Source of the DNA: Cyanobacteria bacterium P01_D01_bin.156
Lineage (GTDB): Bacteria; Cyanobacteriota; Cyanobacteriia; Phormidesmidales; Phormidesmidaceae
NCBI GenBank assembly: GCA_039024555.1
Contig: JBCCQQ010000011.1
Location: 32,001 to 96,000 of the forward strand
Direction: 5' to 3'
Length of the DNA: 64,000 nucleotides
Of the stretch, positions 32,938-58,622 are shown piece by piece. The notes beneath the pieces are model-generated. The model was given only the letters and a program-made list of their open reading frames with translations, searched no databases and was not told where the DNA came from. A program made the position numbers and the translations under genes. Each line of letters begins with the position of its first letter. Positions within the stretch are counted from its first letter, which is position 1.

Positions 32938-35925
32938 ATGACCGACGTCTTCATTTCCTACTCACGAAAAGACGAGACCTTTGTGCAGGTGCTGAATCAG
33001 GCTCTGATAGATAGCAAATACGATGCCTGGGTAGATTGGGAAAGTATTCCCCTCACTGCTGATTGGTGGGAAGAGATTAAAACCGGGATTGAAGGGGCGG
33101 ATACGTTTATCTTTGTAATTAGTCCTGACTCGATTGCGTCTAAAGTCTGTGGTCAGGAGATTGACCATGCGGTAGAAAATAATAAGCGATTGCTGCCGAT
33201 TGTGTATCGGGAAGGCTTTGACCAGTCTCTAATGCGTCCAGCATTAAGTAAACACAACTGGCTGTATTTCAAAGAAGAGAATGACTTTGACCAAGCATTT
33301 ACATCTCTGGTGGAAACGCTCAATACAGATTTGTCCCATGTGAAAACCCATACGCGATTACTAGTTAAAGCTCAGGAATGGGATAAAAAACACCGTCGAG
33401 ATGATTTGCTGCTACGGGGAGATGAGTTTGTCATTTCTGAAAATTGGCTACTGGAAGCGTTAGAACAGCAAAAGGAGCCGCTGCCAACATTTCTACATAA
33501 GGACTACATTCAGGCTGGGCGAGAAGCTCAGGACCGCGCACTTAAGCAAGAAAAACGGCGGAATTTTCTCCTCAGGGGGCTCCTGGCCATCATGACTTTT
33601 ACCTCGGTCGCCGCCTCAGGAGCCAGTATCTATGCCTATCAACTATGGCGCGGTGGACAAATTGAGCAAATTGAGTCACTGGCTAAGCAGTCTAATGCTG
33701 AGTTTTCAGCAGGGCAAACTACCGAGGCCCTAATTAGGGCCTTACAAGCAGCACATCAGTGGCAAAAGTATCCGGGGAGCGATCGCAACCTCGTTCATCA
33801 AAGCTTGCAGCAAGCCGTCAACGGTATTCGCGAAAGCAACAGCTTAGGTGACCATATCGCTGCAGTTAATGACCTTGCAATCAGCCCAGATGGCGAAACC
33901 ATTGCGGCTGGGACAATTGCAGGAAGCATCAAGCTTTGGAGCAAAGACGGGACATTACTTTATACCATCTATGGCCATGCGGAACGCCTGACTAATGTGG
34001 CCTTTAGCCCCGATGGGCAAATGCTGGCCTCAGCAAGTGCAGATCAAACAGCTAAGCTGTGGAATCTTCAAGGGGAACTGCTCCATACCCTTTCAGGACA
34101 TAATGCACGGGTCTCAGACATTGACTTCAGCCTAGACGGGAAAAAGATTGTTACCACGAGTGACGATAGCACGCTGAAGTTATGGACCCAAGACGGCAAA
34201 CTGTTACGCACACTCAACAGTCATGAGGCACAGGTTTACCGGGTGGCCTTTAGTCCTGATGGCGAAATGTTTGCCTCAGCTAGCGACGACAATACGATCA
34301 AACTTTGGAATCTGGAAGGAGATTTACTGCATACGTTAGTTGGACACACCAATGTTCCGGTGGAGCCAGTTTTTAGCCCAGATGGACAACTCTTAGCGTC
34401 GGGAGGGGACGATAAAACTGTACGACTTTGGAATCGTGATGGAGAATTGTTGAAGACCTTAACCGGCCATGAAGACAGAGTCAGAGAAGTTGTTTTTAGT
34501 CCAGATGGGCGAACATTAGCCTCAGCAAGTGATGATAAAACGATTAAACTGTGGACCCGAGAAGGACAACTTATCACCACTCTGATTGGACATTCGGATG
34601 ACGTTCGACGGATACGCTTTAGCCCCGATGGCCAAACGTTTGTATCTGCTAGTGGTGATCAAACTATTAAACACTGGACTTTAGACGGCAGGCTTATCCA
34701 AACCCTGACAGGACACCAAAGCTGGGTCCGAGATCTTGCCTTTAATCCTAATGACCACACCCTTGTCTCTGCTAGTGGTGATCAAACAGTAAAACTTTGG
34801 CAGCTCGAAAGAGGCGTTTCAACTGCTCTACACCATGGAAATGTAGTTAGAAAGATTCTATACAGCCCCAATGGCCAATCTCTTGTGGCGGGGGATGGTC
34901 GTGGTCTCCTCAAGTTTTGGACACCGGACGGAGAACTGATTAAAACGGTAAAAGCCTATGGTCAAGATAATGATGTAAATGATCTTGTCTTTAGCCCCGA
35001 TGGCCAACGGTTGGCGATAATCGGTGAGTCAAGGGGGGATGACCAGACTGCCAAAATTTGGAGTGCTAAGGGAGAACTGCTGCATACCCTTGAGCATCCA
35101 GGTGGTTTAGACGGTTCAGGCTATGCTGTGGACTTTGGCCCCGATGGTAAAACCCTGGCTTCAGCGAAGGGCAATACGGTCAAACTTTGGAGTGCAAATG
35201 GAAATCTTCTCCATACGTTGTCTGGCCATTCAAATAAGGTTCCATTTATCTCCTTTAGCCCTGATGGGAAAACCTTAGCGTCTGCCAGCATAGATGGCAC
35301 TGTTAAACTGTGGAATCTTGAAGGAGAACTGCTTGATACCCTTGGCAATGGAGAAGAGATTTATACGGCAGTGGCCTTCAGCCTCAATGGTCAGTATCTT
35401 GTCGCTGGCAGTGCAGATGGCACATTGCGGCTCTGGAATAACAACGGTGATTTGTTACATACGATGGAAGGCCACACCGGTGTAGCAAACCAAGTCCTCT
35501 TTAGTACTGACGGTCAGACCATTATCTCTGGCAGCGCTGATGGTACAGCTAAGTTTTGGAATCTAAAAGGTAAGCTACTGACTACCCTAAAAGGTCATGA
35601 AGGAGGAATTTGGACTATGGCCCTTAGCCCTGATGGAAAGACGTTAGCAACAGCTGGGAAAGGCCACACAATTAAGCTATGGTCGATAAATGGTGATTTT
35701 TTGCAGACTTTGGTTGGCCACACAGACTCCGTACTTCATATAGAATTTAGCCCGGACGGTAAAACCCTGGCCTCCAGTAGTGTCGATGGGAATGCCATTG
35801 TGTGGGACTTAGAAGCAGTGAAATTTGATGCGCTGATACAGCGGGGCTGTGAGTGGTGGCGCGAGTATACTAAATATCAAGACATCTCACCCGATCAGCA
35901 ACAAGCTATCTGTGATGAAGTTTAA
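32938..35925 (+). CDS. TIR-TM-WD40 protein, copy 1
   Basis: TIR (DVFISYSRKD, WVDWE, FVISPDSIASKVCGQE); LLRG helical linker; TM after KRR; 16 WD40 repeats counted; C-terminal Cys pair. Confidence 0.92.
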   Translation: MTDVFISYSRKDETFVQVLNQALIDSKYDAWVDWESIPLTADWWEEIKTGIEGADTFIFVISPDSIASKVCGQEIDHAVENNKRLLPIVYREGFDQSLMRPALSKHNWLYFKEENDFDQAFTSLVETLNTDLSHVKTHTRLLVKAQEWDKKHRRDDLLLRGDEFVISENWLLEALEQQKEPLPTFLHKDYIQAGREAQDRALKQEKRRNFLLRGLLAIMTFTSVAASGASIYAYQLWRGGQIEQIESLAKQSNAEFSAGQTTEALIRALQAAHQWQKYPGSDRNLVHQSLQQAVNGIRESNSLGDHIAAVNDLAISPDGETIAAGTIAGSIKLWSKDGTLLYTIYGHAERLTNVAFSPDGQMLASASADQTAKLWNLQGELLHTLSGHNARVSDIDFSLDGKKIVTTSDDSTLKLWTQDGKLLRTLNSHEAQVYRVAFSPDGEMFASASDDNTIKLWNLEGDLLHTLVGHTNVPVEPVFSPDGQLLASGGDDKTVRLWNRDGELLKTLTGHEDRVREVVFSPDGRTLASASDDKTIKLWTREGQLITTLIGHSDDVRRIRFSPDGQTFVSASGDQTIKHWTLDGRLIQTLTGHQSWVRDLAFNPNDHTLVSASGDQTVKLWQLERGVSTALHHGNVVRKILYSPNGQSLVAGDGRGLLKFWTPDGELIKTVKAYGQDNDVNDLVFSPDGQRLAIIGESRGDDQTAKIWSAKGELLHTLEHPGGLDGSGYAVDFGPDGKTLASAKGNTVKLWSANGNLLHTLSGHSNKVPFISFSPDGKTLASASIDGTVKLWNLEGELLDTLGNGEEIYTAVAFSLNGQYLVAGSADGTLRLWNNNGDLLHTMEGHTGVANQVLFSTDGQTIISGSADGTAKFWNLKGKLLTTLKGHEGGIWTMALSPDGKTLATAGKGHTIKLWSINGDFLQTLVGHTDSVLHIEFSPDGKTLASSSVDGNAIVWDLEAVKFDALIQRGCEWWREYTKYQDISPDQQQAICDEV

Positions 35926-35940
35926 GGCTAGAGGAGTTTT

Positions 35941-36009
35941 ATCACCAGCCCGGAGTCTTTCGTTTCTAAAGTCTACAGACAGGAGATTAATTATGTGGTG
36001 GAACACAAC
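35941..36009 (+). pseudogene. Degenerate fragment of a fifth TIR copy
   Basis: Translates ITSPESFVSKVYRQEINYVVEHN versus VISPDSIASKVCGQEIDHAVENN in the intact copies; directly follows the inter-copy junction GGCTAGAGGAGTTTTATC. Confidence 0.85.
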
Positions 36010-36678
36010 ATTCTCAGTGAATTAAAGGCTGCTGACAGAATGGGTACTTTTGCAATTTGTCGTCATCTGGGCTGCCATAGGGCCTGACACACAGGACAAA
36101 CGACAGAGCTGTACCCAGGCAAAGCCACAGCCCTAACCTAAATAGAGCATTCATCTCACTCGATTCGTTGAGGTTGACGGTAGGTTAGTTCAAACGCGGT
36201 AATTGAACTTTAACCGCACCCATGGCGGGGGAATACTTAACAGGCATTGAACCTGTAATCACCTAACACAGAATCGGACAGAATACAATGCAGTCAATTG
36301 TCAGCACTGCAAACAGCTTGATCATGATAAAAGTTTCAGGTGTCATGAGAATCGCCTCCTGGAAATATGCATTGAAACAGAGGCGCGTTCCTTCGGGGAA
36401 AAGACCCTACTTCCGTCTCTTGTGAGTCAGATTTTGACTCTGTAAAAGATGAACGTTATTTATTTCTGTATCCTATGTTACTCCTTTGCCTTTAGGTGTC
36501 AATAGGGAAACTCTGTAATGTCTAAAATTCATAACAAGACGGGTCATATGTCCTCGAAAATCGCCTGGGATAGGCAACGTATGCCCGATAAAAAACAGCT
36601 TCTGTTTTCTTGAGTAGAGAAAAATGTCAGAATAGTGCGTATGTGAAAACTGTAGCATTCTACTGCCATTCATCGGTC

Positions 36679-39648
36679 ATGACGGACGTATTTATCTCCT
36701 ACTCCCGCAAAGACAAAGCCTTTGTGCAGGTACTCAATCAGGCCCTGGCCAATAGTAAATACGATGCCTGGGTGGATTGGGAGAATATTCCCCTGACGGC
36801 GGACTGGTGGGAGGAAATTAAAGCCGGGATTGAAGGTGCGGATACGTTTATTTTTGTTATCAGTCCCGACTCCATAGCCTCTAAGGTGTGTGGTCAAGAG
36901 ATTGACCATGCGGTGGAAAACAATAAGCGATTGTTGCCGATTGTGTACCGGGAAGGGTTTGATATGTCTCGGGTACGTCCGGCCTTGGGTAAACACAACT
37001 GGCTGTTCTTTAAAGAAGAGAATGACTTTGACCAAGCATTTACTTCGCTGGTGGATGCCCTCAATACGGATCTATTCCATGTGAAGACCCACACACGATT
37101 GCTGGTTAAAGCTCAGGAATGGGATAAAAAGCACCGTCGGAATGATCTGTTGCTGCGGGGGGATGAGTTCGTCATTTCTGAAAACTGGCTAGTGGAAGCC
37201 CTTGACCAACAAAAGGAGCCGCTGCCAGCCACACTCCATAAAGAGTATATCCAGGCGGGACGAGAAGCTCAAGAACGGGAGGTTAAGCAAGAGAAGCGAC
37301 GGATTTTGATTCTCAGGTCGCTCCTGGCCATCATGAGTTTTGCCTTTTTAGGCGCTGCCGGTCTTGGAGCCCATGCGTATAACCTGTGGCGAAAGGGAGA
37401 AATTGCTCAAATCACTAACCTGGCAGAAAAGTCCAACGCAGAGTTTTTGGCAGGACGAAATACCAATGCGTTGATTACAGCACTGGAAGCAGGTCATAAG
37501 TGGCAGCAATATCCGGGTAGCGATCGCAACCTCGTTCATCAAGTATTGTCGCAGTCCGTTAGCGGCATCCGCGAAATCAAAACATTAGAAGGCCATGATG
37601 GTGTTGTTCGTGAGATAGCCATTAGCCCTGATGGCCAGATAATTGCTTCTGGTTCACAAGACGGAAAAATTAAACTTTGGAACCTGCAAGGTCAACTGTT
37701 GCATACAATTGCAGCTCATGAAGATGATGGTCTATGGCTTAGCTTTAGTCCTGATGGCGAAATTTTGACGTCTGTCAGTGAAGATCACACAGCGAAACTT
37801 TGGAATCTTCAAGGGCAATTATTACATACGCTTTCAGGCCATCAGGATACAGTACACGATCTTATCTTTAGTCTAGATGGTCAAACAATCATAACCGCCA
37901 GTCATGATACTACACTCAAGCTGTGGAACCGAGAAGGAAAGTTGCTAAACACCCTTAACGATCATAACGATATTGTTTGGCGTGTTGTTCTTAGTCCAGA
38001 TGGCCAAACTTTAGTGTCCCATAGCGAAGATAAGACTCTTAAGCTATGGAATTTGCAAGGAGACTTGCTTCACACGTTAGACGCTCATACTGATGTTCCC
38101 TGGAGTGAGGCGTTTAGCCCAGATGGAGAACTGCTGGCATCGAGCGGGGCTGATAATACTGTTAGGCTTTGGAATCGTGATGGTGAATTACTGAAAACCT
38201 TGACTGGTCATGAAGATACCGTTTTTGAAGTGGTCTTTAGCCCTGATGGGCAGACAATAGCCTCAGCCAGTCGAGATACAACCATTAAACTGTGGACCCG
38301 AGAAGGACAGCTCATTACGACGCTCAATGGACATACCAGTGCTGTTAATTGGATCAGGTTTAGTTCTGATGGTCAAACGTTGGCTTCTTCGAGTAATGAC
38401 AACACGATTAAACAGTGGAGCCTGGATGGCACACTTCTACAAACATTAACAGGTCACCAGGCTTGGGTAGGTGATTTGCTATTTAGCAAAGATGGACAAA
38501 CCCTGATATCTGCCAGTGGCGATCAAACAGTCAAGTTTTGGCAACTTGAAGGAAACGTTTCCAAGTCTCTTCGGGGGCATACAAGTTTCGTTCGCAAGGT
38601 TCGATACAGCCCTGATGGTCAAACTCTGGTGACTGGCAGCTCCGACGGCACCCTAAAATTCTGGACTCCCGATGGAGCGCTAATCCGCACTGTGAAGGCG
38701 CACAAAGATGAAGTCCAGGATGTTGCCTTTAGCCCAGACGGAGAAATCATCACGTCGATTAGTCGTGAGGGAATTACCGCTAAACTCTGGAATTCTCAAG
38801 GAGAGCTATTGCATGTTCTAGAAGGTCATGAAGGCAAAGGCTCTTGGACGATCTTTAGCCCAGATGGGCAGACCATCGCCTCAGCCAGCGGCAATGTCGT
38901 CAGACTCTGGAACTTAAACGGTGAACTTCTGCATACTCTAAAGGACCATACGGAAAAAATTAGATACATTGCCTTTAGCCCGAATGGCAAAATCCTGGCA
39001 TCTACGAGCGACGACGGCACGCTCAAGCTATGGAACCTGCAAGGCGAGCTGCTACGAACCCTGGGTAATGGAGAAAAACGCTATTTTGAAGTCACGTTTA
39101 GCCCAGACGGCAACTACCTTGTTGCGGCTAACGGTGATCATACCCTACAACTCTGGAACGCTAGCGGAGACTTACTCCATACCTTAGAAGGCCATACGGA
39201 TGAGGTCATTCGAGTTCTCTTTAGCCGCGATGGTAAAACGATTATCTCAGGAAGTGATGATGGTACTGTCAGATTTTGGAATTTAGAAGGGAAAAACTTA
39301 AAGACTTTCCAGGGCCACGAAGGTGCAATTTGGACTATGGCGATGAGTCCAGACGGTCAAACATTTGCGACTGGTGGTAACGATGGAACTATCGCACTCT
39401 GGTCAATTGAAGGAAAATTAATACAAATCCTGGAGGGACATAAAGACTGGATGATACATCTAGAGTTTAGCCCTGATGGCAAAACCCTCGCTTCCAGTAG
39501 CGCCGACGAAACCGCTATGTTGTGGGACCTAGAAGCGCTAGAGTTTGATGCGCTGATGCAACGAGGCTGTGAGTGGTGGCGCGAGTACACCGAGTATCAA
39601 GACATCCCACCTGACCAACAAGCTATCTGTGGTGAAGTTGAAGGCTAG
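36679..39648 (+). CDS. TIR-TM-WD40 protein, copy 2
   Basis: Same architecture; start corrected to ATG 36679 (MTDVFISYSRKD) by comparison with the paralogues. Confidence 0.92.
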   Translation: MTDVFISYSRKDKAFVQVLNQALANSKYDAWVDWENIPLTADWWEEIKAGIEGADTFIFVISPDSIASKVCGQEIDHAVENNKRLLPIVYREGFDMSRVRPALGKHNWLFFKEENDFDQAFTSLVDALNTDLFHVKTHTRLLVKAQEWDKKHRRNDLLLRGDEFVISENWLVEALDQQKEPLPATLHKEYIQAGREAQEREVKQEKRRILILRSLLAIMSFAFLGAAGLGAHAYNLWRKGEIAQITNLAEKSNAEFLAGRNTNALITALEAGHKWQQYPGSDRNLVHQVLSQSVSGIREIKTLEGHDGVVREIAISPDGQIIASGSQDGKIKLWNLQGQLLHTIAAHEDDGLWLSFSPDGEILTSVSEDHTAKLWNLQGQLLHTLSGHQDTVHDLIFSLDGQTIITASHDTTLKLWNREGKLLNTLNDHNDIVWRVVLSPDGQTLVSHSEDKTLKLWNLQGDLLHTLDAHTDVPWSEAFSPDGELLASSGADNTVRLWNRDGELLKTLTGHEDTVFEVVFSPDGQTIASASRDTTIKLWTREGQLITTLNGHTSAVNWIRFSSDGQTLASSSNDNTIKQWSLDGTLLQTLTGHQAWVGDLLFSKDGQTLISASGDQTVKFWQLEGNVSKSLRGHTSFVRKVRYSPDGQTLVTGSSDGTLKFWTPDGALIRTVKAHKDEVQDVAFSPDGEIITSISREGITAKLWNSQGELLHVLEGHEGKGSWTIFSPDGQTIASASGNVVRLWNLNGELLHTLKDHTEKIRYIAFSPNGKILASTSDDGTLKLWNLQGELLRTLGNGEKRYFEVTFSPDGNYLVAANGDHTLQLWNASGDLLHTLEGHTDEVIRVLFSRDGKTIISGSDDGTVRFWNLEGKNLKTFQGHEGAIWTMAMSPDGQTFATGGNDGTIALWSIEGKLIQILEGHKDWMIHLEFSPDGKTLASSSADETAMLWDLEALEFDALMQRGCEWWREYTEYQDIPPDQQAICGEVEG

Positions 39649-39663
39649 AGGAGTTTTATCACG

Positions 39664-42645
39664 ATGACCGATGTATTTATTTCATATTCTCGCAAAGATA
39701 AAGCCTTTGTTCAAGTGCTCAACCAGGCCCTGGCGGATAGCAAATACGATGCCTGGGTGGATTGGGAAAATATTCCTCTGACAGCGGACTGGTGGGAGGA
39801 AATCAAAGCAGGGATTGAAGGGGCGGATACGTTTATCTTTGTCATCAGTCCCGACTCTATTGCGTCTAAGGTGTGTGGTCAAGAGATTGACCATGCGGTA
39901 GAAAACAATAAGCGACTGTTGCCGATTGTGTACCGGGACGGGTTTGATATGGACCTGGTACGTCCAGCATTAGGTAAACATAACTGGCTGTTCTTTAAAG
40001 AAGAGAATGATTTTGATCCAGCATTCGCTTCTCTCGTGGAAACGCTGAATACAGATCTGTCCCATGTGAAGACCCACACACGATTGCTAGTTAAAGCTCA
40101 GGAATGGGATAAGAAACACCGTCGAGATGATTTGTTGCTGCGGGGTGATGAATTTGTTATTTCTGAAAACTGGCTAGTGGAAGCCCTTGACCAACAAAAG
40201 GAACCGCTGCCAGCCACACTACATAAAGAGTATATCCAGGCCGGACGGGAAGCCCAGGAGCGAGAGGTTAAGCAAGAAAAGCGGCGGATTTTGATTCTCA
40301 GGACAATGCTTGCCATCATGAGCTTTACCGCAGTTACTGCAACGGGAGCTGGTATTTACGCCTACCAACTGTGGCGTAATGGCGAAGTTGCCCAAATTGA
40401 GTCCTTGGCTAAGCAGTCAAACGCGGAGTTTTTGGCGGGGCAAAATACTGATGCGTTGATTACGGCGCTGAAGGCAGGACACAGGTGGGAAAAGTATCCA
40501 GAGAGCGATCGCCAACTCGTGCCTCAGGTGTTACTTCAAGCTGTAGACGGCATTCGGGTAATTAAAACCTTAGGCGGACAAAATAACGTAATCCTCAGAT
40601 TAGCCTTCAGCCCTGACGGGGAGATCATGGCTGAAGGCAGTGCCAGTGGAATCATTAACTTATGGAATAAACAGGGAAAGTTACTCAATACTCTCACAGA
40701 GCATGAAGGCTCTATTCGAAGGCTTATTTTTAGTCCCGATGGGCAAGTTTTAGCATCTGCAAGTGGAGATAAAACTGCTAAATTGTGGAACTTAAATGGA
40801 GAATTACTGCACACGCTTTCAGGCCACACGGACCAAGTACGGGATCTAAGATTCAGTCCTGATGGTCAAACGATTGTGACCTCAAGCCACGACAGCACCC
40901 TCAAGCTCTGGACCCGAGAGGGAAAATTGTTGAAAACACTCGATAATCATGAAGACCGAGCATGGAATTTAGCATTGAGCCCCGATGGCACGATGATAGC
41001 TTCTCACAGCGACGACAGTACTGTAAAAATCTGGAACTTTGAAGGGGAGTTGCTTCATTCGCTACCTCATACCCGAGTCCCTTGGCACACCACATTTAGT
41101 CCTGATAGTGAGCTTATTGCCTCAGGTGGCTATGATCAAACAGTTTCGCTCTGGAATCGCAATGGAGAACTGCTTCATACCTTGACTGGACATGAAGGTA
41201 TCGTTCGGAGAATAGCCTTCAGCCCTGACGGTCAACTATTGGCCTCAGCGAGTGCTGACAACACTATTAAATTGTGGACGAGACAAGGGCAACTTCTTAA
41301 AACGCTTACAGGACACACTCGTACTGTGAGGGGAATAAAGTTTGCGAGTGATGGCAAAATGTTTGCGTCAACTAGTGCTGACAATACCATTAAGCTATGG
41401 GCACGAGATGGCACGCTTTTACAAACTTTGACTGGACACCAAGCATGGGTAGATGCCCTTGAATTCAGCCCTAATGGGCAGATTCTTGCATCAGGCAGCG
41501 GCGACCAGACGGTAAAACTGTGGCAGATGGAAGGAACTGTTTCAACTTCTCTGCAAGGACACACCAGTTTTGTCAGAACCATTCAACACAGCCCTGATGG
41601 ACAAACTTTAGTGACTGGAGGTTCTGATGGCACGTTCAAATTTTGGACAACCGAGGGAGAATTAATCCGCACTGTTGATGGTCACAAGAAAGAAAATGAA
41701 GAAGATGAAATTGAAAATGCTACCTTTAGTCCCGATGGACAAGCCATTGCGACTATCAGCCGTAATGGGGCTAACGCCAAACTCTGGACTTCAGACGGTG
41801 AACTACTGCATGTTCTGGAAGGCCATGAAGGCCAAGGTGGTCGGATAACGTTTAGTCCAGACAGTCAAACTATTGCCTCTTCCAGTGGAAATGTTATTAG
41901 GCTATGGAACTTAGATGGTGATCTGTTACATACTCTAAACGGCCATACAGAATTCATTAGATTTATTGTCTTTAGCCCCGATGGTCAAACGCTAGCCTCT
42001 ACGAGTAACGATGGCACCCTTAAGCTTTGGAACTTAAATGGTGAACACCTAAAAACCCTCGGTAATCGAGAAGAGCGATACTTGGAGATGTCGTTTAGTC
42101 CTGATGGGCAATATCTTGTGGCCGCAAATGGTGACCAAACATTACAACTGTGGAATGCTAACGGTGACCTACTTCGTACTCTGGAAGGCCATGAAGATGA
42201 AGTGATTAGAGTTCTCTTTAGTCGTGACGGAGAAACTATCATTTCTGGTGGCGATGACGGTACTCTACGATTCTGGAATTTAGACGGAGAACTGTTAAAG
42301 AGTATCGAAGGCCATGAGGGTCAGATTTGGCACATGGAATTGAGTCCCGACGGTCAAACTATTGCTACAGGAAGTAGCGATCACACCATCAAGCTGTGGT
42401 CAATCGACGGAGAGCTGATACAAACTCTCGTAGGTCATAAAGGCTGGATCCTGCGTTTAGAATTTAGTCCTGATGGCAAAACTCTTGCGTCTAGCAGTGC
42501 CGATGAAACGGCAATTCTGTGGGACTTGGAATCGCTGAAATTTGATGCCCTAATGCAGCAGGGCTGTGAGTGGTGGCGCGAGTACACCAAGTACCAAGAC
42601 ACTCCACCCGACCAGCAAGCTATCTGTGGTGAAGTTGAAGGCTAG
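39664..42645 (+). CDS. TIR-TM-WD40 protein, copy 3
   Basis: Same architecture; GAGGAG SD in the 15-nt junction after copy 2. Confidence 0.92.
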   Translation: MTDVFISYSRKDKAFVQVLNQALADSKYDAWVDWENIPLTADWWEEIKAGIEGADTFIFVISPDSIASKVCGQEIDHAVENNKRLLPIVYRDGFDMDLVRPALGKHNWLFFKEENDFDPAFASLVETLNTDLSHVKTHTRLLVKAQEWDKKHRRDDLLLRGDEFVISENWLVEALDQQKEPLPATLHKEYIQAGREAQEREVKQEKRRILILRTMLAIMSFTAVTATGAGIYAYQLWRNGEVAQIESLAKQSNAEFLAGQNTDALITALKAGHRWEKYPESDRQLVPQVLLQAVDGIRVIKTLGGQNNVILRLAFSPDGEIMAEGSASGIINLWNKQGKLLNTLTEHEGSIRRLIFSPDGQVLASASGDKTAKLWNLNGELLHTLSGHTDQVRDLRFSPDGQTIVTSSHDSTLKLWTREGKLLKTLDNHEDRAWNLALSPDGTMIASHSDDSTVKIWNFEGELLHSLPHTRVPWHTTFSPDSELIASGGYDQTVSLWNRNGELLHTLTGHEGIVRRIAFSPDGQLLASASADNTIKLWTRQGQLLKTLTGHTRTVRGIKFASDGKMFASTSADNTIKLWARDGTLLQTLTGHQAWVDALEFSPNGQILASGSGDQTVKLWQMEGTVSTSLQGHTSFVRTIQHSPDGQTLVTGGSDGTFKFWTTEGELIRTVDGHKKENEEDEIENATFSPDGQAIATISRNGANAKLWTSDGELLHVLEGHEGQGGRITFSPDSQTIASSSGNVIRLWNLDGDLLHTLNGHTEFIRFIVFSPDGQTLASTSNDGTLKLWNLNGEHLKTLGNREERYLEMSFSPDGQYLVAANGDQTLQLWNANGDLLRTLEGHEDEVIRVLFSRDGETIISGGDDGTLRFWNLDGELLKSIEGHEGQIWHMELSPDGQTIATGSSDHTIKLWSIDGELIQTLVGHKGWILRLEFSPDGKTLASSSADETAILWDLESLKFDALMQQGCEWWREYTKYQDTPPDQQAICGEVEG

Positions 42646-42660
42646 AGGAGTTTTATCACG

Positions 42661-45639
42661 ATGACAGACGTATTTATTTCCTACTCCCGCAAAGACAAAG
42701 CCTTTGTTCAGGTGCTCAACCAGGCACTAGCCGATAGCAAATACGATGCCTGGGTGGATTGGGAGAATATTCCCCTCACTGCTGACTGGTGGGAAGAGAT
42801 TAAAGCGGGGATCGAAGGGGCGGATACGTTTATCTTTGTCATCAGCCCGGACTCGATTGCGTCTAAGGTATGTGGTCAGGAGATTGACCATGCAGTAGAA
42901 AACAATAAGCGGTTGTTGCCGATTGTGTACCGAGAAGGGTTTGATATGTCCTTGGTGCGCCCGGCTTTGGGTAAACACAACTGGCTGTTCTTCAAAGAAG
43001 AGAATGACTTTGACCCAGCATTTGCATCGCTGGTGGATGCCCTCAATACGGATCTATCCCATGTGAAGACCCACACACGCTTACTGGTTAAAGCTCAAGA
43101 ATGGGATAAAAAGCACCGACGGGATGATTTGTTGCTACGGGGTGATGAGTTTATCATTTCCGAAAACTGGCTAGTGGAAGCCCTTGATCAACACAAGGAA
43201 CCACTGCCAGCCACACTACACAAAGAGTATATCCAGGCGGGACGGGAGGCTCAGGAACGGGAGGTTAAACAAGAGAAGCGACGGATTTTGATCCTTAGGT
43301 CGCTAGTCGCCATTCTGAGTCTTGCCTTTGTAGGGGCTGCTGGTCTTGGTGCTCATGCTTATAATTTATGGCGTAAAGGAGAAGTTGAACAGATTGAGTC
43401 TCTGGCAAAACAGTCTAATGCTGAATTTTTAGCAGGACGAAATACCGATGCGTTGATTACGGCTCTAGAAGCAGGGCATCAATGGCAAAAATATCCAGGT
43501 AGCGATCGCATCTTCGTTCATCAAGTCTTGGCACAAGCCGTCAACGGCATTCGCGAAATCAAAACCTTAGGTGACAACTATGATGTTATTTGGGACATTG
43601 CTGTTAGCCTCGACGGTAGCATCATTGCCTCTGGCGGCCACGTCGGAGAAATGAAACTCTGGAGCCGGGAAGGGAAGTTGCTCCATACCGTCTCGGCCCA
43701 TGAAAAGGGGATTCGTCAATTGGCTTTTAGCCCCGATGGCGAGATATTAGCGTCGGCGAGTGATGACCAGACGGCTAAGCTTTGGAACCTTCAGGGTGAG
43801 CCCCTAAAGACGCTCTCAGGTCATGAGGATAATGTTGAAGGTTTGGGATTCAGTCCCGATGGTCAAACCCTGGTGACATCTAGCAAGGATGCCACGCTTA
43901 AGCTCTGGAATCGAAACGGTGAGCTGTTGCAGACCTTGAACGATCATAAAGGCCCCGCTTGGGATCTGGTCTTCAGCTCCGATGGTCAGATATTTGCATC
44001 CCATAGCGATGACGACACCGTGAAGCTTTGGAATTGGGAAGGAGAAGTCCTCCGAACCCTCTATGAACCTAACGCTGATCCCTGGAGCAAAGCCTTTAGC
44101 CCAGATGGAGAACTGATCGCGACTGGTGGAGCCGATAAAACCATTAGACTATGGAATCTTGATGGCGAGCTATTACACACCCTGACAGGCCATGAAGATA
44201 CTGTACGCCAGGTCGTTTTCAGTCCAGATGGACAGTTGCTCGCCTCGGCGAGCTACGACAACACAATTAAACTCTGGAACCGAGAAGGAGAGATCATTAA
44301 AACCTTGGCAGGGCATACTCAAAATGTCAACTGGATGCAGTTTAGTCAGGATGGCCAAACCTTCGTCACCTCTAGTAGCGACGGCACGATCAAGCAGTGG
44401 AGGTTAGATGGAGCTTTACTGCAAACATTGACGGGACATACAAGTTGGGTCGGAGATGTTGTTTGGAGTCCAGATGGTCAAACGGTAATATCTGGCAGCG
44501 GCGACCGAACCGTTAAGCTTTGGCAATTGACAGGCAATACCTCAACCACGCTGAAAGGCCACAATTCATGGGTCAGCGCCGCTCAATATACTCCTGACGG
44601 TCAGATGCTGATCACAGGAGAAGGGTATGGCCCACTGAAATTTTGGACTGCCGACGGCGAGCTGATTCGCACGGTTGATGGACATAGTTATGATGATGGA
44701 CTCGGTGCCTTTGCCGTGAGTCCAGACGGTCAATTCATTGCTTCCATCAGCAATAATGGGCCAGTTGCCATCCTCTGGAATGCCCAAGGGGAAATACTAC
44801 ACACGCTCGAAGTCGAAGACGGATCTAAACCACGGGTAAGGTTTAGCCCTGATGGAGAAATCCTGCTTACCGCCCGGGGTGGTGTTATCCACCTCTGGAA
44901 TTTGGACGGAGAGCTCTTGCACACGCTGACTAGCGATACAGAGTCCATTCAAGACATCACCTTCAGTCCTGACAGTCAAATCCTGGTATCGACTAACAGT
45001 AATGGCCCCCTCAACATTTGGAGTGTTGAGGGTGAATTGCTAAATAGTTTAGGCGATCGGGAAGAACCTTATTATGCAGTAACCTTTAGCCCCGATGGAC
45101 AGTATCTGGTGGCGGGCAGCAAGGACAACACAGTGCAACTTTGGACTGCCAACGGCGAGTTGCTACACATGCTCGAAGGCCACACCGATGCAATAAACGA
45201 TGTTCTCTTTAGTCACGACGGTCAAACGATCATCTCTGCCAGCGAAGATGGCAACATCAAATTTTGGAGCCTAGAAGGTGAGCTAGTGAATTCAGCCAAG
45301 GCCGAGGAAGCAGAAATTTGGGAAGGAATATGGGATATTGCTTTGAGCCCTGACGGAGAGACGTTAGCGACCGCTGGAGACTATATCGTTAAGCTCTGGT
45401 CGATGAATGGCGAGCTTTTACAGACCTTAGTCGGTCACATTGGCTCGGTAAGGGATCTAGAATTCAGCCCCGACGGCAAAACCCTCGTCTCCAGTAGCGC
45501 TGATGAGACCGCTATTGTGTGGAATTTAGAAGCGCTGGAGTTTGATGCCCTGATGCAGCGAGGCTGTGAGTGGTTCAAAAACTACGAGGCCAACAAAACA
45601 GACGAAGACAAACATGAGTCTCTCTCCCTTTGCAATTAG
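42661..45639 (+). CDS. TIR-TM-WD40 protein, copy 4
   Basis: Same architecture; identical 15-nt junction; distinct C-terminal tail. Confidence 0.92.
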   Translation: MTDVFISYSRKDKAFVQVLNQALADSKYDAWVDWENIPLTADWWEEIKAGIEGADTFIFVISPDSIASKVCGQEIDHAVENNKRLLPIVYREGFDMSLVRPALGKHNWLFFKEENDFDPAFASLVDALNTDLSHVKTHTRLLVKAQEWDKKHRRDDLLLRGDEFIISENWLVEALDQHKEPLPATLHKEYIQAGREAQEREVKQEKRRILILRSLVAILSLAFVGAAGLGAHAYNLWRKGEVEQIESLAKQSNAEFLAGRNTDALITALEAGHQWQKYPGSDRIFVHQVLAQAVNGIREIKTLGDNYDVIWDIAVSLDGSIIASGGHVGEMKLWSREGKLLHTVSAHEKGIRQLAFSPDGEILASASDDQTAKLWNLQGEPLKTLSGHEDNVEGLGFSPDGQTLVTSSKDATLKLWNRNGELLQTLNDHKGPAWDLVFSSDGQIFASHSDDDTVKLWNWEGEVLRTLYEPNADPWSKAFSPDGELIATGGADKTIRLWNLDGELLHTLTGHEDTVRQVVFSPDGQLLASASYDNTIKLWNREGEIIKTLAGHTQNVNWMQFSQDGQTFVTSSSDGTIKQWRLDGALLQTLTGHTSWVGDVVWSPDGQTVISGSGDRTVKLWQLTGNTSTTLKGHNSWVSAAQYTPDGQMLITGEGYGPLKFWTADGELIRTVDGHSYDDGLGAFAVSPDGQFIASISNNGPVAILWNAQGEILHTLEVEDGSKPRVRFSPDGEILLTARGGVIHLWNLDGELLHTLTSDTESIQDITFSPDSQILVSTNSNGPLNIWSVEGELLNSLGDREEPYYAVTFSPDGQYLVAGSKDNTVQLWTANGELLHMLEGHTDAINDVLFSHDGQTIISASEDGNIKFWSLEGELVNSAKAEEAEIWEGIWDIALSPDGETLATAGDYIVKLWSMNGELLQTLVGHIGSVRDLEFSPDGKTLVSSSADETAIVWNLEALEFDALMQRGCEWFKNYEANKTDEDKHESLSLCN

Positions 45640-45660: not shown

Positions 45661-46950
45661 CTATGAACCCAAAACCATCTCATTAACCGTTTGTCCCATC
45701 TGCAGAGGCGACGCTTTTCTCTTAATTGAAATACAGTCAGCTAAATAATTAGCATCACGCGCAATGCCAGAAAAACGACCCGAACCCCAGGTATACAACC
45801 AAGGTAACCCCAAGAAATAAAGCCCCGACACAGGAGTCACACCCCGCTCATGACCGGGATAACCCTTGCCATCAAAAACAGGAACATCCACCCAGCCAAA
45901 ATTAGAGTGGTAGCCCGTGGACCAAATAACCGTCGAAATATTTGCCGCCTCTAGATCGAGAGAAAGTGTGCTGGTTTCCGGTTGCCACACTGGACAATAG
46001 TCGGCCTCCACAGGTGCATCCAGCTGATGTTTTTCAATGTAGTCATCAATGGTGCTTTTAATGCTTTCAGACACGGCATCGGCCTGATCTAAATTTTGTC
46101 GAAGATTATCTTGAAATGTTAAATCGCTTCCTTGAATACTATCGAGTTTGCCATAGAGCTTCATCCCTTCTAGGGCAAAATGTCGCAAGTCAATCTCTCG
46201 TCCACCATCGCGACCGGTAACATAGTGATTTGTTTTAGTCCGAACAGATTCTTTTTGGGGATGATCATCAATGGACATATCGTAATAGCCCATCTGATCC
46301 AGCCAGTCCACCACATCCTTCCCGCGATACACACGGGGAGACCGGGGCGCACCCCCAACACATAAATGTACCTGTTTGCCTGCCAGGTGCAAGTCTTCAG
46401 CAATTTGGCACCCGGATTGCCCCGTACCTACCACTAGCACAGCCCCATCGGCCAAAGCCTCAGGATTCTTATATTCCGAGGAATGGATCTGGGTAACCGA
46501 TTGGGGTAACCGTTCCGCCATTCTAGGAATTTTGGGCGTATGGTAACCACCGGTGGCAATCACCACCTGGTCAGCAACATAGTGACCAATGGACGTTTCA
46601 ATATCAAATACGTTTTCAGGTTTACTGATTTTCTCAACCGTTACCCCTTCTTTTACTAACGGCTGAAACGATTGAGCATAGTCTTCTATATATTGCACAA
46701 TCTCATCCCGCTGCATAAAGCCGTTGGGGTCACCACCCGGATAGTGATACCCCGGCAACGTGCACTGCCAGTTAGGGGTTACCAGACAAAACGTATCCCA
46801 ACGCTTAGAACGCCACGAATGGGCAATTTTGTGCTTTTCAAAAATTATGTTGTCAATGCCTCGCTGCTTGAGGCAGTAGCTAATGGCTAAGCCCGCCTGA
46901 CCGCCACCGATAATGGCAACTGGAAAATGGGAACTGGTTAATGCTCGCAT
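45661..46950 (-). CDS. nitH: MSMEG_0569-family flavin-dependent oxidoreductase (Nit1C cluster)
   Basis: IIGGGQAGL, RWDTFCLVTPNW, VVGTGQSGCQIAEDL, GLPWLYTWGSGRF; cluster context. Confidence 0.88.
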   Translation of the reverse strand: MRALTSSHFPVAIIGGGQAGLAISYCLKQRGIDNIIFEKHKIAHSWRSKRWDTFCLVTPNWQCTLPGYHYPGGDPNGFMQRDEIVQYIEDYAQSFQPLVKEGVTVEKISKPENVFDIETSIGHYVADQVVIATGGYHTPKIPRMAERLPQSVTQIHSSEYKNPEALADGAVLVVGTGQSGCQIAEDLHLAGKQVHLCVGGAPRSPRVYRGKDVVDWLDQMGYYDMSIDDHPQKESVRTKTNHYVTGRDGGREIDLRHFALEGMKLYGKLDSIQGSDLTFQDNLRQNLDQADAVSESIKSTIDDYIEKHQLDAPVEADYCPVWQPETSTLSLDLEAANISTVIWSTGYHSNFGWVDVPVFDGKGYPGHERGVTPVSGLYFLGLPWLYTWGSGRFSGIARDANYLADCISIKRKASPLQMGQTVNEMVLGS

Positions 46951-47067
46951 GGCTTTAGTAGCTAGAGAATGAGTAACCTGCCCCACTATCCACACTCGTA
47001 AGAGTTCAAAGACAGCAGCATTTGAAGGCAGGGCAATTTGCTTCGATGGCGAAATTGCTATAGTTCA

Positions 47068-47109
47068 ACCATAGGAATCTCAACGGTGAGTACCTGTATC
47101 GAGAGTTAC
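47068..47109 (-). promoter_or_regulatory. NtcA-activated-type promoter for nitH
   Basis: Minus strand reads GTAACTCTCGATAC (GTA-N8-TAC, 47096-47109), exactly 22 nt, then TATGGT (TAN3T -10 box, 47068-47073). Confidence 0.7.
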
Positions 47110-47192
47110 CAAACACACAAGTCTCGGACTATGGTCAGGGCAGATCTGCAGGCGCTAGCTTAAATAACAGCTCATCATAGGTTAATCGCGAT

Positions 47193-47216
47193 TTACCTGC
47201 ACTTTTTGACAGGTAA
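47193..47216. promoter_or_regulatory. Lux-box-like palindrome upstream of nitB
   Basis: TTACCTG-CACTTTTTGA-CAGGTAA, i.e. an ACCTG-N10-CAGGT core, overlapping a TTGACA hexamer (47206-47211). Confidence 0.5.
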
Positions 47217-47361
47217 CTGTCTTTTTAGAATATCTCTCATCAGTATTAAATCTGTTTCCCTGTCTCATTTGTCAGGCTTTATCGCTTTGTAACAACAGAT
47301 ACGAGAAAGAGAACTTAGACCTTTTAAGCTGCTGACAAATCCATATGTGGGAGTAACGTAA

Positions 47362-47844
47362 ATGCCTGAAGTAACCGCTCCAGCTCATCAGGCCGGTGAC
47401 TTTTTCGTTGACTACGAAGAAAAAGTGTTTCCAGATGTTCAAGCAGAACCTGGAGAGAAAGCGCTGGTGGCTTTTCACACGGTCGCTTTTGAGGGGTCCA
47501 TTGGTTTAGTCAATCTGTTACAGGCGACTCGCTTAATCCGTAAAGGGTTTGAAACCTCTGTATTGCTCTACGGTCCCGGTGTGACACTAGGTGTACAGCG
47601 TGGTTTCCCAAAACTAGGTGACGAGGCATTTCCAGGACACTTGGCCATGAATAACCAGTTGGTCAAGGTGATGGAAGAAGGCGGTAAGGTTTATGCTTGC
47701 CGGTTTGCGCTCCAGGCCCTTTATGGTCATGGTGAACCTTCTTTAATTCCCGGCATCACGCCGATTAATCCTTTGGATGTATTGGATATTATTCTGTTAC
47801 ACCGTAAGGAAGGCGCATTTGTTCTGGATACTTGGACAATGTAG
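47362..47844 (+). CDS. nitB: MSMEG_0572/Sll0783-family nitrogen-starvation protein (DsrE-like)
   Basis: [35 protein letters not shown]; directly upstream of the nitrilase. Confidence 0.9.
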
Positions 47845-48067
47845 GAAATCGAAGAAAAATTGTTTAGGCAATTTTCTTTTGAAATCTTGCATTTGGCAAA
47901 TCCTGAACAAGCAGCAGTGCACAAGATTCTATTCTGCTCTTTCTGAAGGGCTTTAGGAGAATTACTGGGGCGGGAGCTTCTACCTAGGAGTATTGGCCCC
48001 CTCTCTCTCAGTCTCTCTTGTGAAGGCTACTCATCTAAAGATTATTGACGTTGAGGATGATAGCAAC

Positions 48068-48162
48068 GGTCCCCCTTAAATAAGGGGACCAACGGAGGGG
48101 TTCTTGATCGTTAACGCTGACATCGAGCCCCCTCCCTGACGGTTCCCCTTAGTAAGGGGAAC
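48068..48162. repeat. Palindromic intergenic repeat (CCCCTT-N3/4-AAGGGG family), inverted copy
   Basis: Two CCCCTT..AAGGGG hairpins; the reverse complement of 48121-48162 closely matches 50611-50653. Confidence 0.75.
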
Positions 48163-48406
48163 TATTAGCAGGCTATTTTGAGAGCCATGAATCTCAAGAG
48201 TTTTAGCTATTGAACCATGCATACTCGTTACCCTCATAACGAGGAAATGAATATCGTCAAATCTCATAACGATATTTTTTCAGAACCATTCATAGCTGTT
48301 CTCTCAAACGTCAACGTAGGCCAATCGGCACCATTGATTTTGACCTCTTGAATGTTCTTTATATCTCAAATAGAATGATCGTTCTATTTCATACGCTTTA
48401 GCCACT

Positions 48407-49423
48407 ATGGACTACTCTCGCACAGTGAGAGCGGCGGCTGTACAGATTGCCCCTGTGCTGCATAGTCGTTCCGGCACAATGGAAAAGGTACTTAAAGCCA
48501 TTGATGATGCGGCCAAGGAGGGCGCACAGTTAGTGGTTTTTCCAGAAACCTTTGTGCCCTATTACCCATATTTTTCCTTTGTGTTGCCAGCGGTGCTGAT
48601 GGGTAAGGAGCATATGAAGCTCTACGAGGAAGCGGTGGAAGTGCCGGGACCGGTTACGGAAGCCGTCAGTGCAGCAGCGAGAACCCACGGTATAGTAGTT
48701 GTTCTAGGGGTAAACGAACGTGATAAGGGCTCTCTTTACAACACTCAGCTGATTTTTGATGCGGATGGTAGCTGTCTGCTGAAACGACGCAAGATTACGC
48801 CCACCTACCATGAGCGCATGGTGTGGGGACAGGGGGATGGCTCTGGGCTGCAGGTGTGTGATACGGCGGTGGGCCGCGTTGGTGCCCTGGCCTGTTGGGA
48901 ACATTACAATCCCCTGGCGCGATACAGCCTAATGGCGAACCATGAACAGATTCACTGCGCCCAGTTTCCTGGCTCCATGGTCGGGGAGATTTTTTCAAGC
49001 CAAACAGAGGTGACCCTACGCCACCATGCGCTAGAGTCCGGTTGTTTTGTGGTGAATTCTACCGGTTGGCTGACGCCTGACCAGGTCAGTGAGATTGCCC
49101 CCAATGAAGGTTTAGAGAAGGTTTTACGGGGTGGCTGCTATACGGCCATTATTAGCCCAGAAGGGGTGCCGCTGTGTGAACCGATTCGGGAAGGTGAGGG
49201 AATTGCGATCGCAGACCTAGATTTCTCTCTGATCACCAAACGTAAGCGGATGATGGACTCCGTGGGCCACTATGCTCGACCTGACTTATTACAGTTATCG
49301 GTGAATAAAGCCGCCTATTCTGTTGTTTCTTCTGATATAGCAACACCGGCTGAAGATAGTGGGGCCTGTTATCCACCTGAATCATCTTTTCCAGAGGCTT
49401 CTCCTGAGACAAATCCGATGTAA
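48407..49423 (+). CDS. nitC: Nit6803/Nit1C-family nitrilase
   Basis: Catalytic triad E (VFPETF), K (RRKITPT), C (LACWEH); [10 protein letters not shown]. Confidence 0.93.
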
Positions 49424-49477
49424 AACATTCGGCCTCCAACACATTTCAATTTTAGATATATCTCTTTTTATCCGACC

Positions 49478-50563: not shown

Positions 50564-50610
50564 AAGATTTTATAAACCGATGGCCCATCAGGGACTCGGT
50601 GATTTTTTGG

Positions 50611-50712
50611 GTTCTCCTTAGTAAGGGGAATCGTCAAGGAGGGGGAATCGATGATTAGCACAGACGACAAAGACCCCTCCGCCTACGGCACCTCCCCTTA
50701 CCAAGGGGAGGA
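50611..50712. repeat. Palindromic intergenic repeat (CCCCTT-N3/4-AAGGGG family)
   Basis: 30 nt AAGACCCCTCCGCCTACGGCACCTCCCCTT (50670-50699) identical to 57346-57375, followed by a 3-nt loop and AAGGGGAGGA. Confidence 0.85.
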
Positions 50713-50759
50713 CGTTGCAGAACATAATCCTTGCTTTTTGTTTTTCGCTTTCTAAAACT

Positions 50760-51272
50760 ATGAAAAAACGTACCTATAGTTTTCAACTGGCCCTTTCTAA
50801 ACCCGATATTGCCGATTATTTTAATTTACGGCAACAAATTTTCTGTGCAGAACAGGGGCTTTTTCAAGACCACGATCGCGATTCCATCGATGAGACCTCC
50901 TACCCGATTGTCTCTATTGCCCATACGCTAGAACAGCCCGACCAGGTTGTCGGAGTAGTGCGCATCTATGAAGAAAAGCCACGACTCTGGTATGGCGGAC
51001 GTTTGGGGGTACATCCAGACTTTCGTCGGGTCGGTCGCATTGGTAAGGGGCTGATTCAAAAAGCAGTGACAACAGCAAATACCTGGGGTTGCGATCGCTT
51101 CCTAGCTACGGTTCAATTGCAAAACGTGCGTTTCTTCACCCGACTGCACTGGCATAGTTTGGAGGAGATTGAGGTGATGGGGCACCCTCATCATTTGATG
51201 GAAGCCGATTTGGCATACTATCCTGCAACAGATCAGCCACGTCCAGTGTTACCGCTTAAACAAGTTGCTTAG
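50760..51272 (+). CDS. nitE: MSMEG_0567/Sll0786-family GNAT protein
   Basis: LRQQIFCAEQGLF, VVGVVRI, WYGGRLGV, FLATVQLQN; cluster order. Confidence 0.88.
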   Translation: MKKRTYSFQLALSKPDIADYFNLRQQIFCAEQGLFQDHDRDSIDETSYPIVSIAHTLEQPDQVVGVVRIYEEKPRLWYGGRLGVHPDFRRVGRIGKGLIQKAVTTANTWGCDRFLATVQLQNVRFFTRLHWHSLEEIEVMGHPHHLMEADLAYYPATDQPRPVLPLKQVA

Positions 51273-51711: not shown

Positions 51712-51745
51712 TTTAGAATTTTGCGCGCTGCGACAAAATTCTAAA
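51712..51745. repeat. 12-bp stem-loop between nitE and nitF
   Basis: TTTAGAATTTTG-N10-CAAAATTCTAAA. Confidence 0.6.
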
Positions 51746-51849
51746 AAAGGTAGGTTATCTACTTTCTGATAAATAGGCAAAATCATCGTTCGGATTATGA
51801 TTTCTTTTAACTCTTGAGAACGTCAGAAAATATAGCTTTATAACAACTA

Positions 51850-58617: not shown

Positions 58618-58622
58618 TGCAT

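Follow-up and report, generated by a model that had tools for sequence, protein, structure and literature searches.

Introduction

The Toll-like receptors (TLRs) of animals are single-pass proteins with a cytoplasmic TIR domain, one transmembrane (TM) segment and extracytoplasmic repeats, and their paralogues combine a conserved TIR domain with a variable ectodomain (PMC7075850). In the literature searched here, each report being represented by part of its text, sensing by the TIR immune systems of bacteria takes place within the cell. A 2024 survey of Escherichia coli remarks that bacterial TIR systems seem to lack some features of the TLRs, among which it names membrane association, TM domains and leucine-rich repeats (LRRs) (PMC11350192). 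The subject of this study is a tandem array of four genes in a 64,000-nucleotide stretch of DNA (the window; contig JBCCQQ010000011.1, positions 32,001 to 96,000) from Cyanobacteria bacterium P01_D01_bin.156, encoding proteins that are predicted to hold a TIR domain inside the cell and a WD40 double propeller outside it. The array is an analogue of the TLRs and not a member of that class: the cytoplasmic TIR domain (from its inferred N-in orientation), the predicted single TM segment, the outer repeats and the contrast between a constant TIR domain and variable ectodomains are shared, whereas the TIR domain is N-terminal instead of following an N-terminal LRR ectodomain, the ectodomain is of WD40 type, the catalytic Glu is kept, no MyD88-type adaptor is known and the sensors are likely exchanged horizontally. 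As an analogy between single-pass receptors, the TLR parallel drawn in an earlier reading of the array (the original prediction) holds.

Other described systems share further parts of the layout. The cyanobacterial AAA_35 (PF14516) and nSTAND1 (PF20703) proteins with TM-WD40 or TM-CHASE2 regions (PMC8195603) resemble the array proteins in stalk, TM helix, post-TM helices, sensors and Cys pair; the central NTPase of STAND and NLR proteins (Avs, nSTAND1, AAA_35, HNWD) is missing from the array, where the TIR domain sits directly on the stalk, so that no nucleotide threshold switch is expected. Cat1, SPARTA TIR-APAZ, AbTir and ThsB of Thoeris have the TIR fold and the catalytic Glu of helix alpha-C (Glu74 in the array) in common with our proteins, which differ in having a predicted membrane anchor and an outside sensor, in carrying Val instead of the aromatic residue of cyclising TIRs (ThsB and AbTir type) and in lacking a linked effector gene such as the adjacent one of Thoeris. 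The fungal HNWD and HET-E proteins (PMC13449251) likewise possess a WD40 sensor that varies at a few top-face positions and is exchanged between genes. The original prediction had extended its comparison to them, and here it breaks down: the array has no NACHT domain, and its internal repeat identity is 39-44% rather than 80-100%. It also shows no ratio of nonsynonymous to synonymous substitution rates (dN/dS) above 1, appears to exchange the whole double propeller rather than single repeats, and is predicted to span the membrane. The EACC1/EACC2 and membrane caspase-CHASE2 systems of multicellular bacteria join a constant N-terminal enzyme to interchangeable C-terminal sensors, some of them extracellular (PMC7159879, PMC8195603, PMC3501461); in the array the constant module is TIR plus stalk instead of a caspase, no EACC partner gene is present and the genes lie in tandem. 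No description of a TIR-stalk-TM-WD40 family or of its cassette exchange was found in literature listings or in the portions consulted of PMC13581612, PMC8195603, PMC7159879, PMC10907252, PMC7075850, PMC5587647, PMC3501461, PMC11350192 and bioRxiv 2025.12.03.692087; supplementary architecture lists of the two eLife papers may include the layout.

It is proposed, with confidence that we would put at about even, that the array encodes four single-pass TIR receptors whose variable propellers bind outside ligands and drive an NAD+-consuming assembly, likely in non-self defence, and whose sensor cassettes are swapped. The main new result, as judged from sequence comparison, is the separate history of the modules with likely inter-species cassette exchange; this, the apparent homology of the stalk to that of STAND-type membrane receptors and a VxxxE variant of the TIR active site were all overlooked in the original prediction.

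Results and Discussion

Architecture of the four receptors

The array consists of four intact forward-strand open reading frames (ORFs) of about 990 amino acids (aa; Table 1). From N to C terminus each protein comprises a TIR_2 domain (PF13676, residues 4-124, with E values across the four copies of 1e-27 to 6e-26), a helical stalk with an LLRG motif (131-205), the residues KRR, a hydrophobic helix (209-233), two further helices, 16 WD40 blades (by count in copy 3, with 15-16 hidden Markov model matches in each copy) and a terminal Cys pair; the last of these and the SKVCGQE motif of the TIR domain are kept in all four. A P-loop (GxxxxGK[ST]) was found in none of the copies and an NTPase family was not found in residues 1-300, where no room is left between stalk and TIR domain; a hidden NTPase was rejected on these grounds. 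All of the structural features listed in the original prediction (four paralogues of about 990 aa, near-constant TIR and linker, a TM segment after KRR, about 16 blades, a Cys pair, SKVCGQE and no NTPase) are therefore present, and the blade-1 and blade-2 strings that it quoted are found in the alignment of the copies. It had also deduced an 8+8 propeller from a linker after blade 8. The spacing there is a normal 41 aa with a diverged junction (copy 3 register), and the deduction survives on other evidence: a double propeller of 8+8 blades is likely, because residues 297-622 of the copy 1 model (blades 1-8, the part searched) superpose as one closed propeller (Z 46.2, root-mean-square deviation 1.4 Å, 326 residues), as against about 286 residues at more than 3 Å for WDR5-type propellers.

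The TIR domains are 90-97% and the linkers 87-97% identical between copies, with a proportion of synonymous differences (pS) of 0.35-0.65 and dN/dS of 0.02-0.07, whereas the propellers are only 54-73% identical, which bears out the expected combination of constant output and variable sensors. The original prediction needs amending in one respect: beyond purifying selection, a common ancestry more recent than that of the propellers accounts for part of the constancy of the TIR domain. Synonymous sites of the propellers are saturated, and a very recent duplication of the four copies was rejected for that reason. Copies 2-4 are packed like an operon, each following the last after an identical 15-nt gap that holds a GAGGAG ribosome site between stop codon and ATG, and copies 1 and 2 are separated by a spacer of 753 nt. 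Mis-assembly of the window was rejected, since long contigs of sequencing run X1, which is possibly the source of the window, show no differences over the four propellers and flanks; these contigs break inside the TIR modules, and no listed piece spans the whole array.

Probable exchange of sensor cassettes

The strongest sign of exchange comes from copy 2 and gene L025:6505-9504 of a related genome, G012. The two genes differ at 190 bases, of which 135 fall in 36679-37518 and only 6 in 37519-39021; a further 7 follow before 39325, and the remaining 42 lie beyond it. The flanks of the cassette thus defined differ by 13-16% and the TIR parts by 16%. At four-fold degenerate sites the propellers differ at 12 of 293 positions and the TIR plus linker at 43 of 79. 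As a background, rpoB of the source genome (G000) and G012 is 78.6% identical and the nitrilase cluster 75-82%. A clade of copy 2 and the G012 gene is rejected by the tree of the TIR plus stalk (approximately unbiased (AU) test, p 0.0003), whereas the propeller tree joins the same two at 100/100, rejects a grouping of copies 2, 3 and 4 (AU p 9e-67) and assigns each of the four copies to a lineage of its own, copy 1 beside a gene of G015 and copy 4 beside one of G024, whose propeller is its sister at 79-87% aa identity. Elsewhere in the family one propeller lineage (77-86% aa identity) is found both on a single-TIR gene (G005) and on triple-TIR genes (G004, G014). Within the array, pooled four-fold differences amount to 197/456 in the TIR plus linker and 757/1113 in the propellers (six non-independent pairs), as would be expected if the TIR module were partly homogenised. 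Taken together, the trees and site counts indicate that the TIR-stalk and propeller modules have separate histories, and propeller cassettes are likely exchanged by homologous recombination within and between species.

Three points weigh against this reading. The grouping of copies 2-4 in the TIR tree is weak (67/90); that tree does not reject copy 4 with the G024 gene (p 0.059) and shows no conflict for copy 1 with the G015 gene; and G012 is 89% complete and 6% contaminated, so that its contig may come from a closer relative than rpoB suggests and the exchange could have been within a species, recombination being indicated either way.

Pieces of the copy 2 cassette were also found at 99-100% identity in runs of four further studies, which yielded short pieces at low depth: X3 and X5 are from microbial mat, X4 from biofilm, X6 from a plant and X7 from macroalgae. 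Identity is 91-97% for other copy 2 pieces in X3-X5, and mostly 90-95% for the pieces listed on copy 4. Absence of the flanking genes from X3-X7 carries no weight here, given the low depth and the use of contigs alone. A contig of 2,951 nt from run X2 crosses both junctions and so links the propeller to the divergent TIR part; it may not be independent of G012. These matches suggest that one cassette has spread recently across species and habitats.

Variation on the propeller face

Blades were compared in a register of 41 positions, and the indel-bearing loops of blades 5, 10 and 11 were excluded from the codon fits. The positions that vary most between copies are 12, 14, 15 and 30 (0.73-0.80 of pairs differ), as against 0.49 in non-motif bottom loops and 0.40 on the sides; the top face is more variable than the rest in 16 of 16 blades, as the original prediction of variation on one propeller face would have it, and 12 non-redundant genes show the same pattern. 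Positions 12, 14 and 30 correspond to the R1-2/R1/D-1 binding hotspots of the WD40 top face (PMC3419727), and Hu et al. report variation at the same sites in repetitive bacterial WD40 proteins (PMC5587647). Codon fits (GY94, 16 genes) gave hotspot dN/dS of 0.49 and 0.59 for the two propellers, whose bottom loops reached 0.19-0.20 and whose core 0.07-0.09; pairwise estimates (NG86) at hotspots ranged from 0.21 to 1.15 in seven pairs. The suggested dN/dS check therefore came out in part: the TIR domain lies far below 1 and the top face is elevated, and the top face does not exceed 1. Positive selection there finds no support: in both propellers a free mixture left every site class at or below a dN/dS of 1, in a test whose power is limited by near-saturated synonymous sites and recombination.

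The same values might be read as those of redundant duplicates that drift under relaxed constraint on exposed loops and have no distinct specificities, in keeping with dN/dS below 1 throughout and with the existence of frameshifted or split relatives (C86 of the source genome, and L076). We regard this as highly unlikely. The four frames are intact with saturated synonymous sites, the core is strongly constrained and variation in the exposed bottom loops falls far short of that on the top face. In addition, two pairs of genes at similar synonymous distance, picked after the data had been seen, differ at 11/43 and 37/44 hotspot positions (p 3e-8), other surfaces being alike (p 0.16); simple relaxation fits poorly because constraint on the top face, strong in the first pair, differs by lineage at equal synonymous distance. 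This pattern suggests that specificity changes in bursts followed by conservation. Five of the 13 amino-acid-changing differences between copy 2 and its G012 twin lie at hotspots, which make up 7% of sites (p 0.002).

Homogenisation of repeats within a gene, as in HET proteins, was rejected for the array, whose blades share a mean identity of 39-44% and at most 66% (13 regular blades per copy). Elsewhere in the source genome, gene L071:162-2768 (C95) has 14 blades that look near-identical to one another, unlike those of the array, as might arise by repeat homogenisation.

Topology and the stalk

Each copy has one hydrophobic helix, after KRR, with a Kyte-Doolittle (KD) maximum of 1.53-2.34 and a best value elsewhere of 0.94-1.12. 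A first AlphaFold2 (AF2) model from four sequences had a predicted local distance difference test (pLDDT) below 50 for residues 1-297; remodelling of residues 1-300 with 78 sequences raised it to 92.8 and gave a TIR domain on a two-helix stalk, with a single continuous helix (185-257) running through the TM segment. Of 265 homologues retrieved, mostly multi-TIR top matches, four were truncated; among the other 261, a TM segment directly follows the final stalk in 247, and 233 of these 247 have more Lys and Arg before it than after it. The slot after the TM helix is filled by CHASE2 in a paralogue of the source genome (L063) and by Cache in the family member L076; the former domain has been described as an extracellular receptor domain (PMC3501461, PMC8195603). 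A scan of 35 proteins, picked from 72 that had no match to the WD40 profile, yielded 11 diverged propellers, 8 proteins with other domains (FGE-sulfatase/C-lectin in four, WG repeats in two, and Cache, CHASE2, TPR and LRR in one each, some combined) and 16 with no named domain. In the source genome a terminal Cys pair was matched by regular expression in 11 of 16 WD40 proteins with a TM segment as against 5 of 15 without, and four of these five are fragments missing the N-terminus.

The positive-inside bias and the replacement of WD40 by CHASE2 or Cache after the same helix argue strongly for a propeller outside the membrane and a TIR domain inside, and the arrangement foreseen in the original prediction is supported to that extent. 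Propellers that face the thylakoid lumen, or a re-entrant or coiled-coil helix in a wholly cytoplasmic TIR-WD40 sensor, seem a very distant prospect. Copy 1 is weakly hydrophobic, 14 of 261 homologues lack the TM segment and sequence cannot separate plasma membrane from thylakoid; set against this are the TM statistics and domain swaps above and the occurrence of the family in bacteria without thylakoids (Anaerolineae, Bacteroidota, Beggiatoaceae).

Stalk, TM and post-TM helices align with AAA_35- and nSTAND1-TM-WD40 proteins of the source genome (HHalign probability 99.0%, E 5.6e-18, with three proteins as template), as compared with at most 0.6% in 20 column shuffles, and the LLRG motif also occurs in an AAA_35-CHASE2 protein. 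The array proteins are best read as STAND-type membrane receptors in which a TIR domain stands where others have the NTPase, and the stalk would be a continuous helical transducer common to AAA_35 and nSTAND1 receptors. Stalk matches in the ESM Atlas are unnamed clusters, and an nSTAND1 link there (13% of one cluster, score 0.80) is a lead only.

Predicted active site of the TIR domain

The closest folds to the TIR domain are Hydra TRR-2 (Z 18.7), SARM1 (18.1) and MyD88 (17.6), tied within about one unit, and its best sequence match is the Cat1 NADase (E 2.7e-5). Glu74, present in at least 90% of 78 aligned modules, aligns with the Glu of the Cat1 WxxxE motif; at the -4 position, aromatic in WxxxE, all four copies have Val70. 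A survey of 91 family TIRs, seven of which had no motif match, found Val in 52, Ile in 5, Tyr in 3 and Asn in 1 of 61 single-TIR proteins and an aromatic residue in 21 of 23 TIRs from multi-TIR proteins; in the wider homologue set 508 multi-TIR domains have Tyr. According to Manik et al., every cyclase TIR surveyed has an aromatic residue in this position of WxxxE, and the W204A mutant of AbTir shifts from cyclic product towards ADP-ribose (ADPR) with a fall in activity (bioRxiv 2022.05.07.491051). Because Val replaces the aromatic residue of cyclising TIRs, the array TIR is predicted to act as an NADase that does not cyclise, or as a scaffold, and to give no cyclic signal, the predicted product of hydrolysis being ADPR and nicotinamide rather than cyclic ADPR.

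The split at -4 (Val or Ile in 57/61 against aromatic in 21/23) and the aromatic residue common to all surveyed cyclases also fit a division of labour, in which single-TIR members are weak nucleators that recruit multi-TIR membrane proteins (3-5 repeats, YxxxE) to make cyclic ADPR, as receptor and amplifier. The source genome has at least five multi-TIR membrane proteins. Such a pairing is improbable in our view, the genes being unlinked, the multi-TIR proteins bearing sensors of their own and the source genome having yielded no cyclic-ADPR effector.

Proposed mechanism and its alternatives

TIR activation by clustering or assembly is established for SARM1, AbTir and SPARTA, and by analogy the array TIR may be activated in the same manner. 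We propose that a periplasmic ligand would bind the top faces of the propellers, that ligand-bound receptors would cluster, that the continuous stalk helix would bring the TIR domains together and that the assembled domains would consume NAD+. The affected cell might then be arrested, conjecturally as local growth arrest within the filament. The ligand may be foreign, and phage tail or injection proteins, effectors of predators or competitors, and surface glycans are conjectural candidates. Diversity would be renewed by duplication, loss and recombination of cassettes at the conserved post-TM helices and the last blade. The four receptors likely form a repertoire, their variable top faces binding different outside molecules. 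A defence role is a conjecture from the evolutionary pattern and the domain company, which includes immune-type sensors elsewhere in the family (FGE-sulfatase/C-lectin, WG, TPR, LRR) and a pair of TIR and STAND-TPR genes 8 kb away.

Other observations count against this proposal. The TM helix of copy 1 has a low KD maximum (1.53) and an Arg in its region, Val at -4 could mean that the TIR domain has little or no enzyme activity, no PADLOC system model was matched (partial TIR-level and WD40-level matches only), and CHASE2 and Cache partners in the same slot point to small-molecule sensing. The last of these is also the first argument for receptors of the same topology that serve ordinary environmental, host or developmental signalling, the ligands of the propellers coming from host, biofilm or self and the TIR domain being a scaffold or the source of a low-level ADPR signal without killing. 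No dN/dS above 1, the mostly housekeeping and nitrogen-starvation neighbours, the glutamine riboswitch and NtcA-like box inside the array, the adaptor MyD88 among the closest folds and the prevalence of VxxxE in single-TIR members (52/61) can all be read in the same way. We nevertheless hold ordinary signalling to be doubtful: a copy number of 0-7 in the genus, recent cassette transfer and a kept catalytic Glu are more typical of conflict loci, and the riboswitch belongs to a small ORF and is directed away from the receptor genes.

If the receptors do act in defence, they may tentatively be placed in a Toll-like layer of filamentous bacteria, in which non-self would be detected in the periplasm before or during entry, one homogenised signalling module would serve cassettes that sweep across species, and there would be two NAD-derived outputs, from single-TIR VxxxE and multi-TIR YxxxE proteins. 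Extracytoplasmic non-self sensing in multicellular bacteria would then be directly testable, and the receptor would provide an NADase switch that is both modular and transmembrane. The array lends itself to experiment as it stands, having four sensors on one output module and natural recombination joints that mark exchangeable cassettes, and it gives a one-residue prediction for the TIR product.

Distribution of the family

The source genome is a cyanobacterial genome of 6.6 Mb that is 99% complete. Relatives 81-91% identical over the first 300 residues come from Leptothoe spongobia and unclassified cyanobacterial metagenome-assembled genomes, and Crinalium, Nodosilinea and Anaerolineae are among those at greater distance. 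Of the 22 genomes compared within the genus, some of them incomplete, 10 carry close TIR-stalk modules (E <= 1e-80), at 1-7 copies each. Tandem arrays are found in G015 (six genes), G007 (five plus three), G012 (four and a fragment) and G024 (two); their members have 12-16 blades and often a TPR tail. Beyond the genus, 2,398 of 8,000 candidates scored are matches, the family forms 7,127 clusters at 50% identity (E <= 1e-30) and its taxa include Microcystis, Moorena, Parabeggiatoa, Bacteroidota and Gemmatimonadetes. As such, then, the architecture is a common one, and the array and its dynamics are the special part of the finding; the family, with its predicted receptor topology, is very large and appears unstudied. 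One protein query retrieved no relative from viral contigs, and 6 of 72,556 plasmid records match the family.

The source genome holds nine more TIR-stalk proteins, and in six of these the TIR-stalk unit occurs 2-5 times. Its multi-TIR membrane proteins at L063:4138-8619, L065:4402-8589, L066:6763-12111 and L067:5760-9842 have 3-5 tandem repeats (mostly YxxxE) ahead of WD40 or CHASE2, and two of them adjoin genes for TPS-domain secreted proteins. Multi-TIR homologues reach seven TIRs. Protein P0245 combines three TIRs, an FGE-sulfatase domain and C-terminal LRRs, a literal TIR plus LRR receptor-like layout, and P0163, P0239, P0243, P0259 and P0260 have a nucleoside deoxyribosyltransferase-like domain N-terminal to the TIR repeats. 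The family members at L069:5860-10084 (C86 of the source genome), L076:10001-12973 and L089:57-3028 each occupy two ORFs, apparently through a frameshift or an interruption, a sign of turnover.

Genomic context

The array is flanked directly by genes for a glyoxalase and an MSMEG_0569 oxidoreductase. The left flank continues with a 2-hydroxyacid dehydrogenase and a GAF-LuxR regulator, and the right flank is the nitrogen-starvation nitrilase cluster (Sll0783-0787 / MSMEG_0565-0572) with a glycosyltransferase and an amidohydrolase. No conserved effector or partner gene is adjacent in the loci mapped. STALD and SIR2_2 gave no match in the source genome, a negative without weight, as the STALD control likewise matched nowhere. 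The TIR and STAND-TPR genes farther to the right share a helical segment of about 45 aa, at the C-terminus of the former and the N-terminus of the latter, like an effector-associated adaptor pair. G016 has a similar pair (L031:3-2782), which together with a glycosyltransferase and an amidohydrolase flanks a TIR-TM-WD40 gene, and the same AAA and RecQ genes accompany the array of G015; the region thus appears to host such receptors repeatedly. A scan for promoters and terminators was at chance level (14 against 16.6 expected).

Table 1. Features of the array and its surroundings (positions in the window)
Feature	Position	Strand	Remarks
Copy 1	32938-35925	+	ORF of 995 aa
Copy 1, parts	TIR 32938-33327; stalk 33328-33552; TM ~33562-33636; 16-blade double propeller 33826-35814	+	
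Copy 1, terminal Cys pair			Cys971/Cys992
Spacer	35926-36678	.	Recurs whole in the arrays of G012 and G007, where it separates other receptor genes; contains the copy 2 leader
27-codon ORF	36263-36346	-	Downstream of riboswitch; GGAGG site, no Pfam match
Glutamine (glnA) riboswitch	36382-36457	-	51 bits
GTA-N8-TAC box	36468-36481	-	Presumably NtcA-like; overlaps a promoter-like site
Copy 2	36679-39648	+	989 aa from ATG; ORF listing begins at TTG 36610
Copy 2, parts	TIR 36679-37068; stalk; TM ~37303-37377; double propeller 37567-39534; Cys pair	+	
Copy 2, putative exchanged sensor cassette	37519-39325	+	13 differences in ~1,800 nt from G012 gene L025:6505-9504
Junction (stop, GAGGAG, ATG)	39646-39663; identical repeat at 42643-42660	+	
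Copy 3	39664-42645	+	ORF of 993 aa
Copy 3, parts	TIR 39664-40053; stalk; TM ~40288-40362; double propeller 40552-42531; Cys pair	+	
Copy 3, predicted catalytic Glu74	39883-39885	+	From alignment; Val at -4
Copy 4	42661-45639	+	ORF of 992 aa
Copy 4, parts	TIR 42661-43050; stalk; TM ~43285-43359; double propeller 43549-45531; Cys pair	+	
Nitrilase cluster	45661-52821 and 57484-59855		Ordinary
TIR gene, then STAND-TPR gene	53707-57120	-	8 kb from the array

Elsewhere in the window, positions 14744-17492 hold a CHASE2-GGDEF gene with DUF928, a common cyanobacterial pair.

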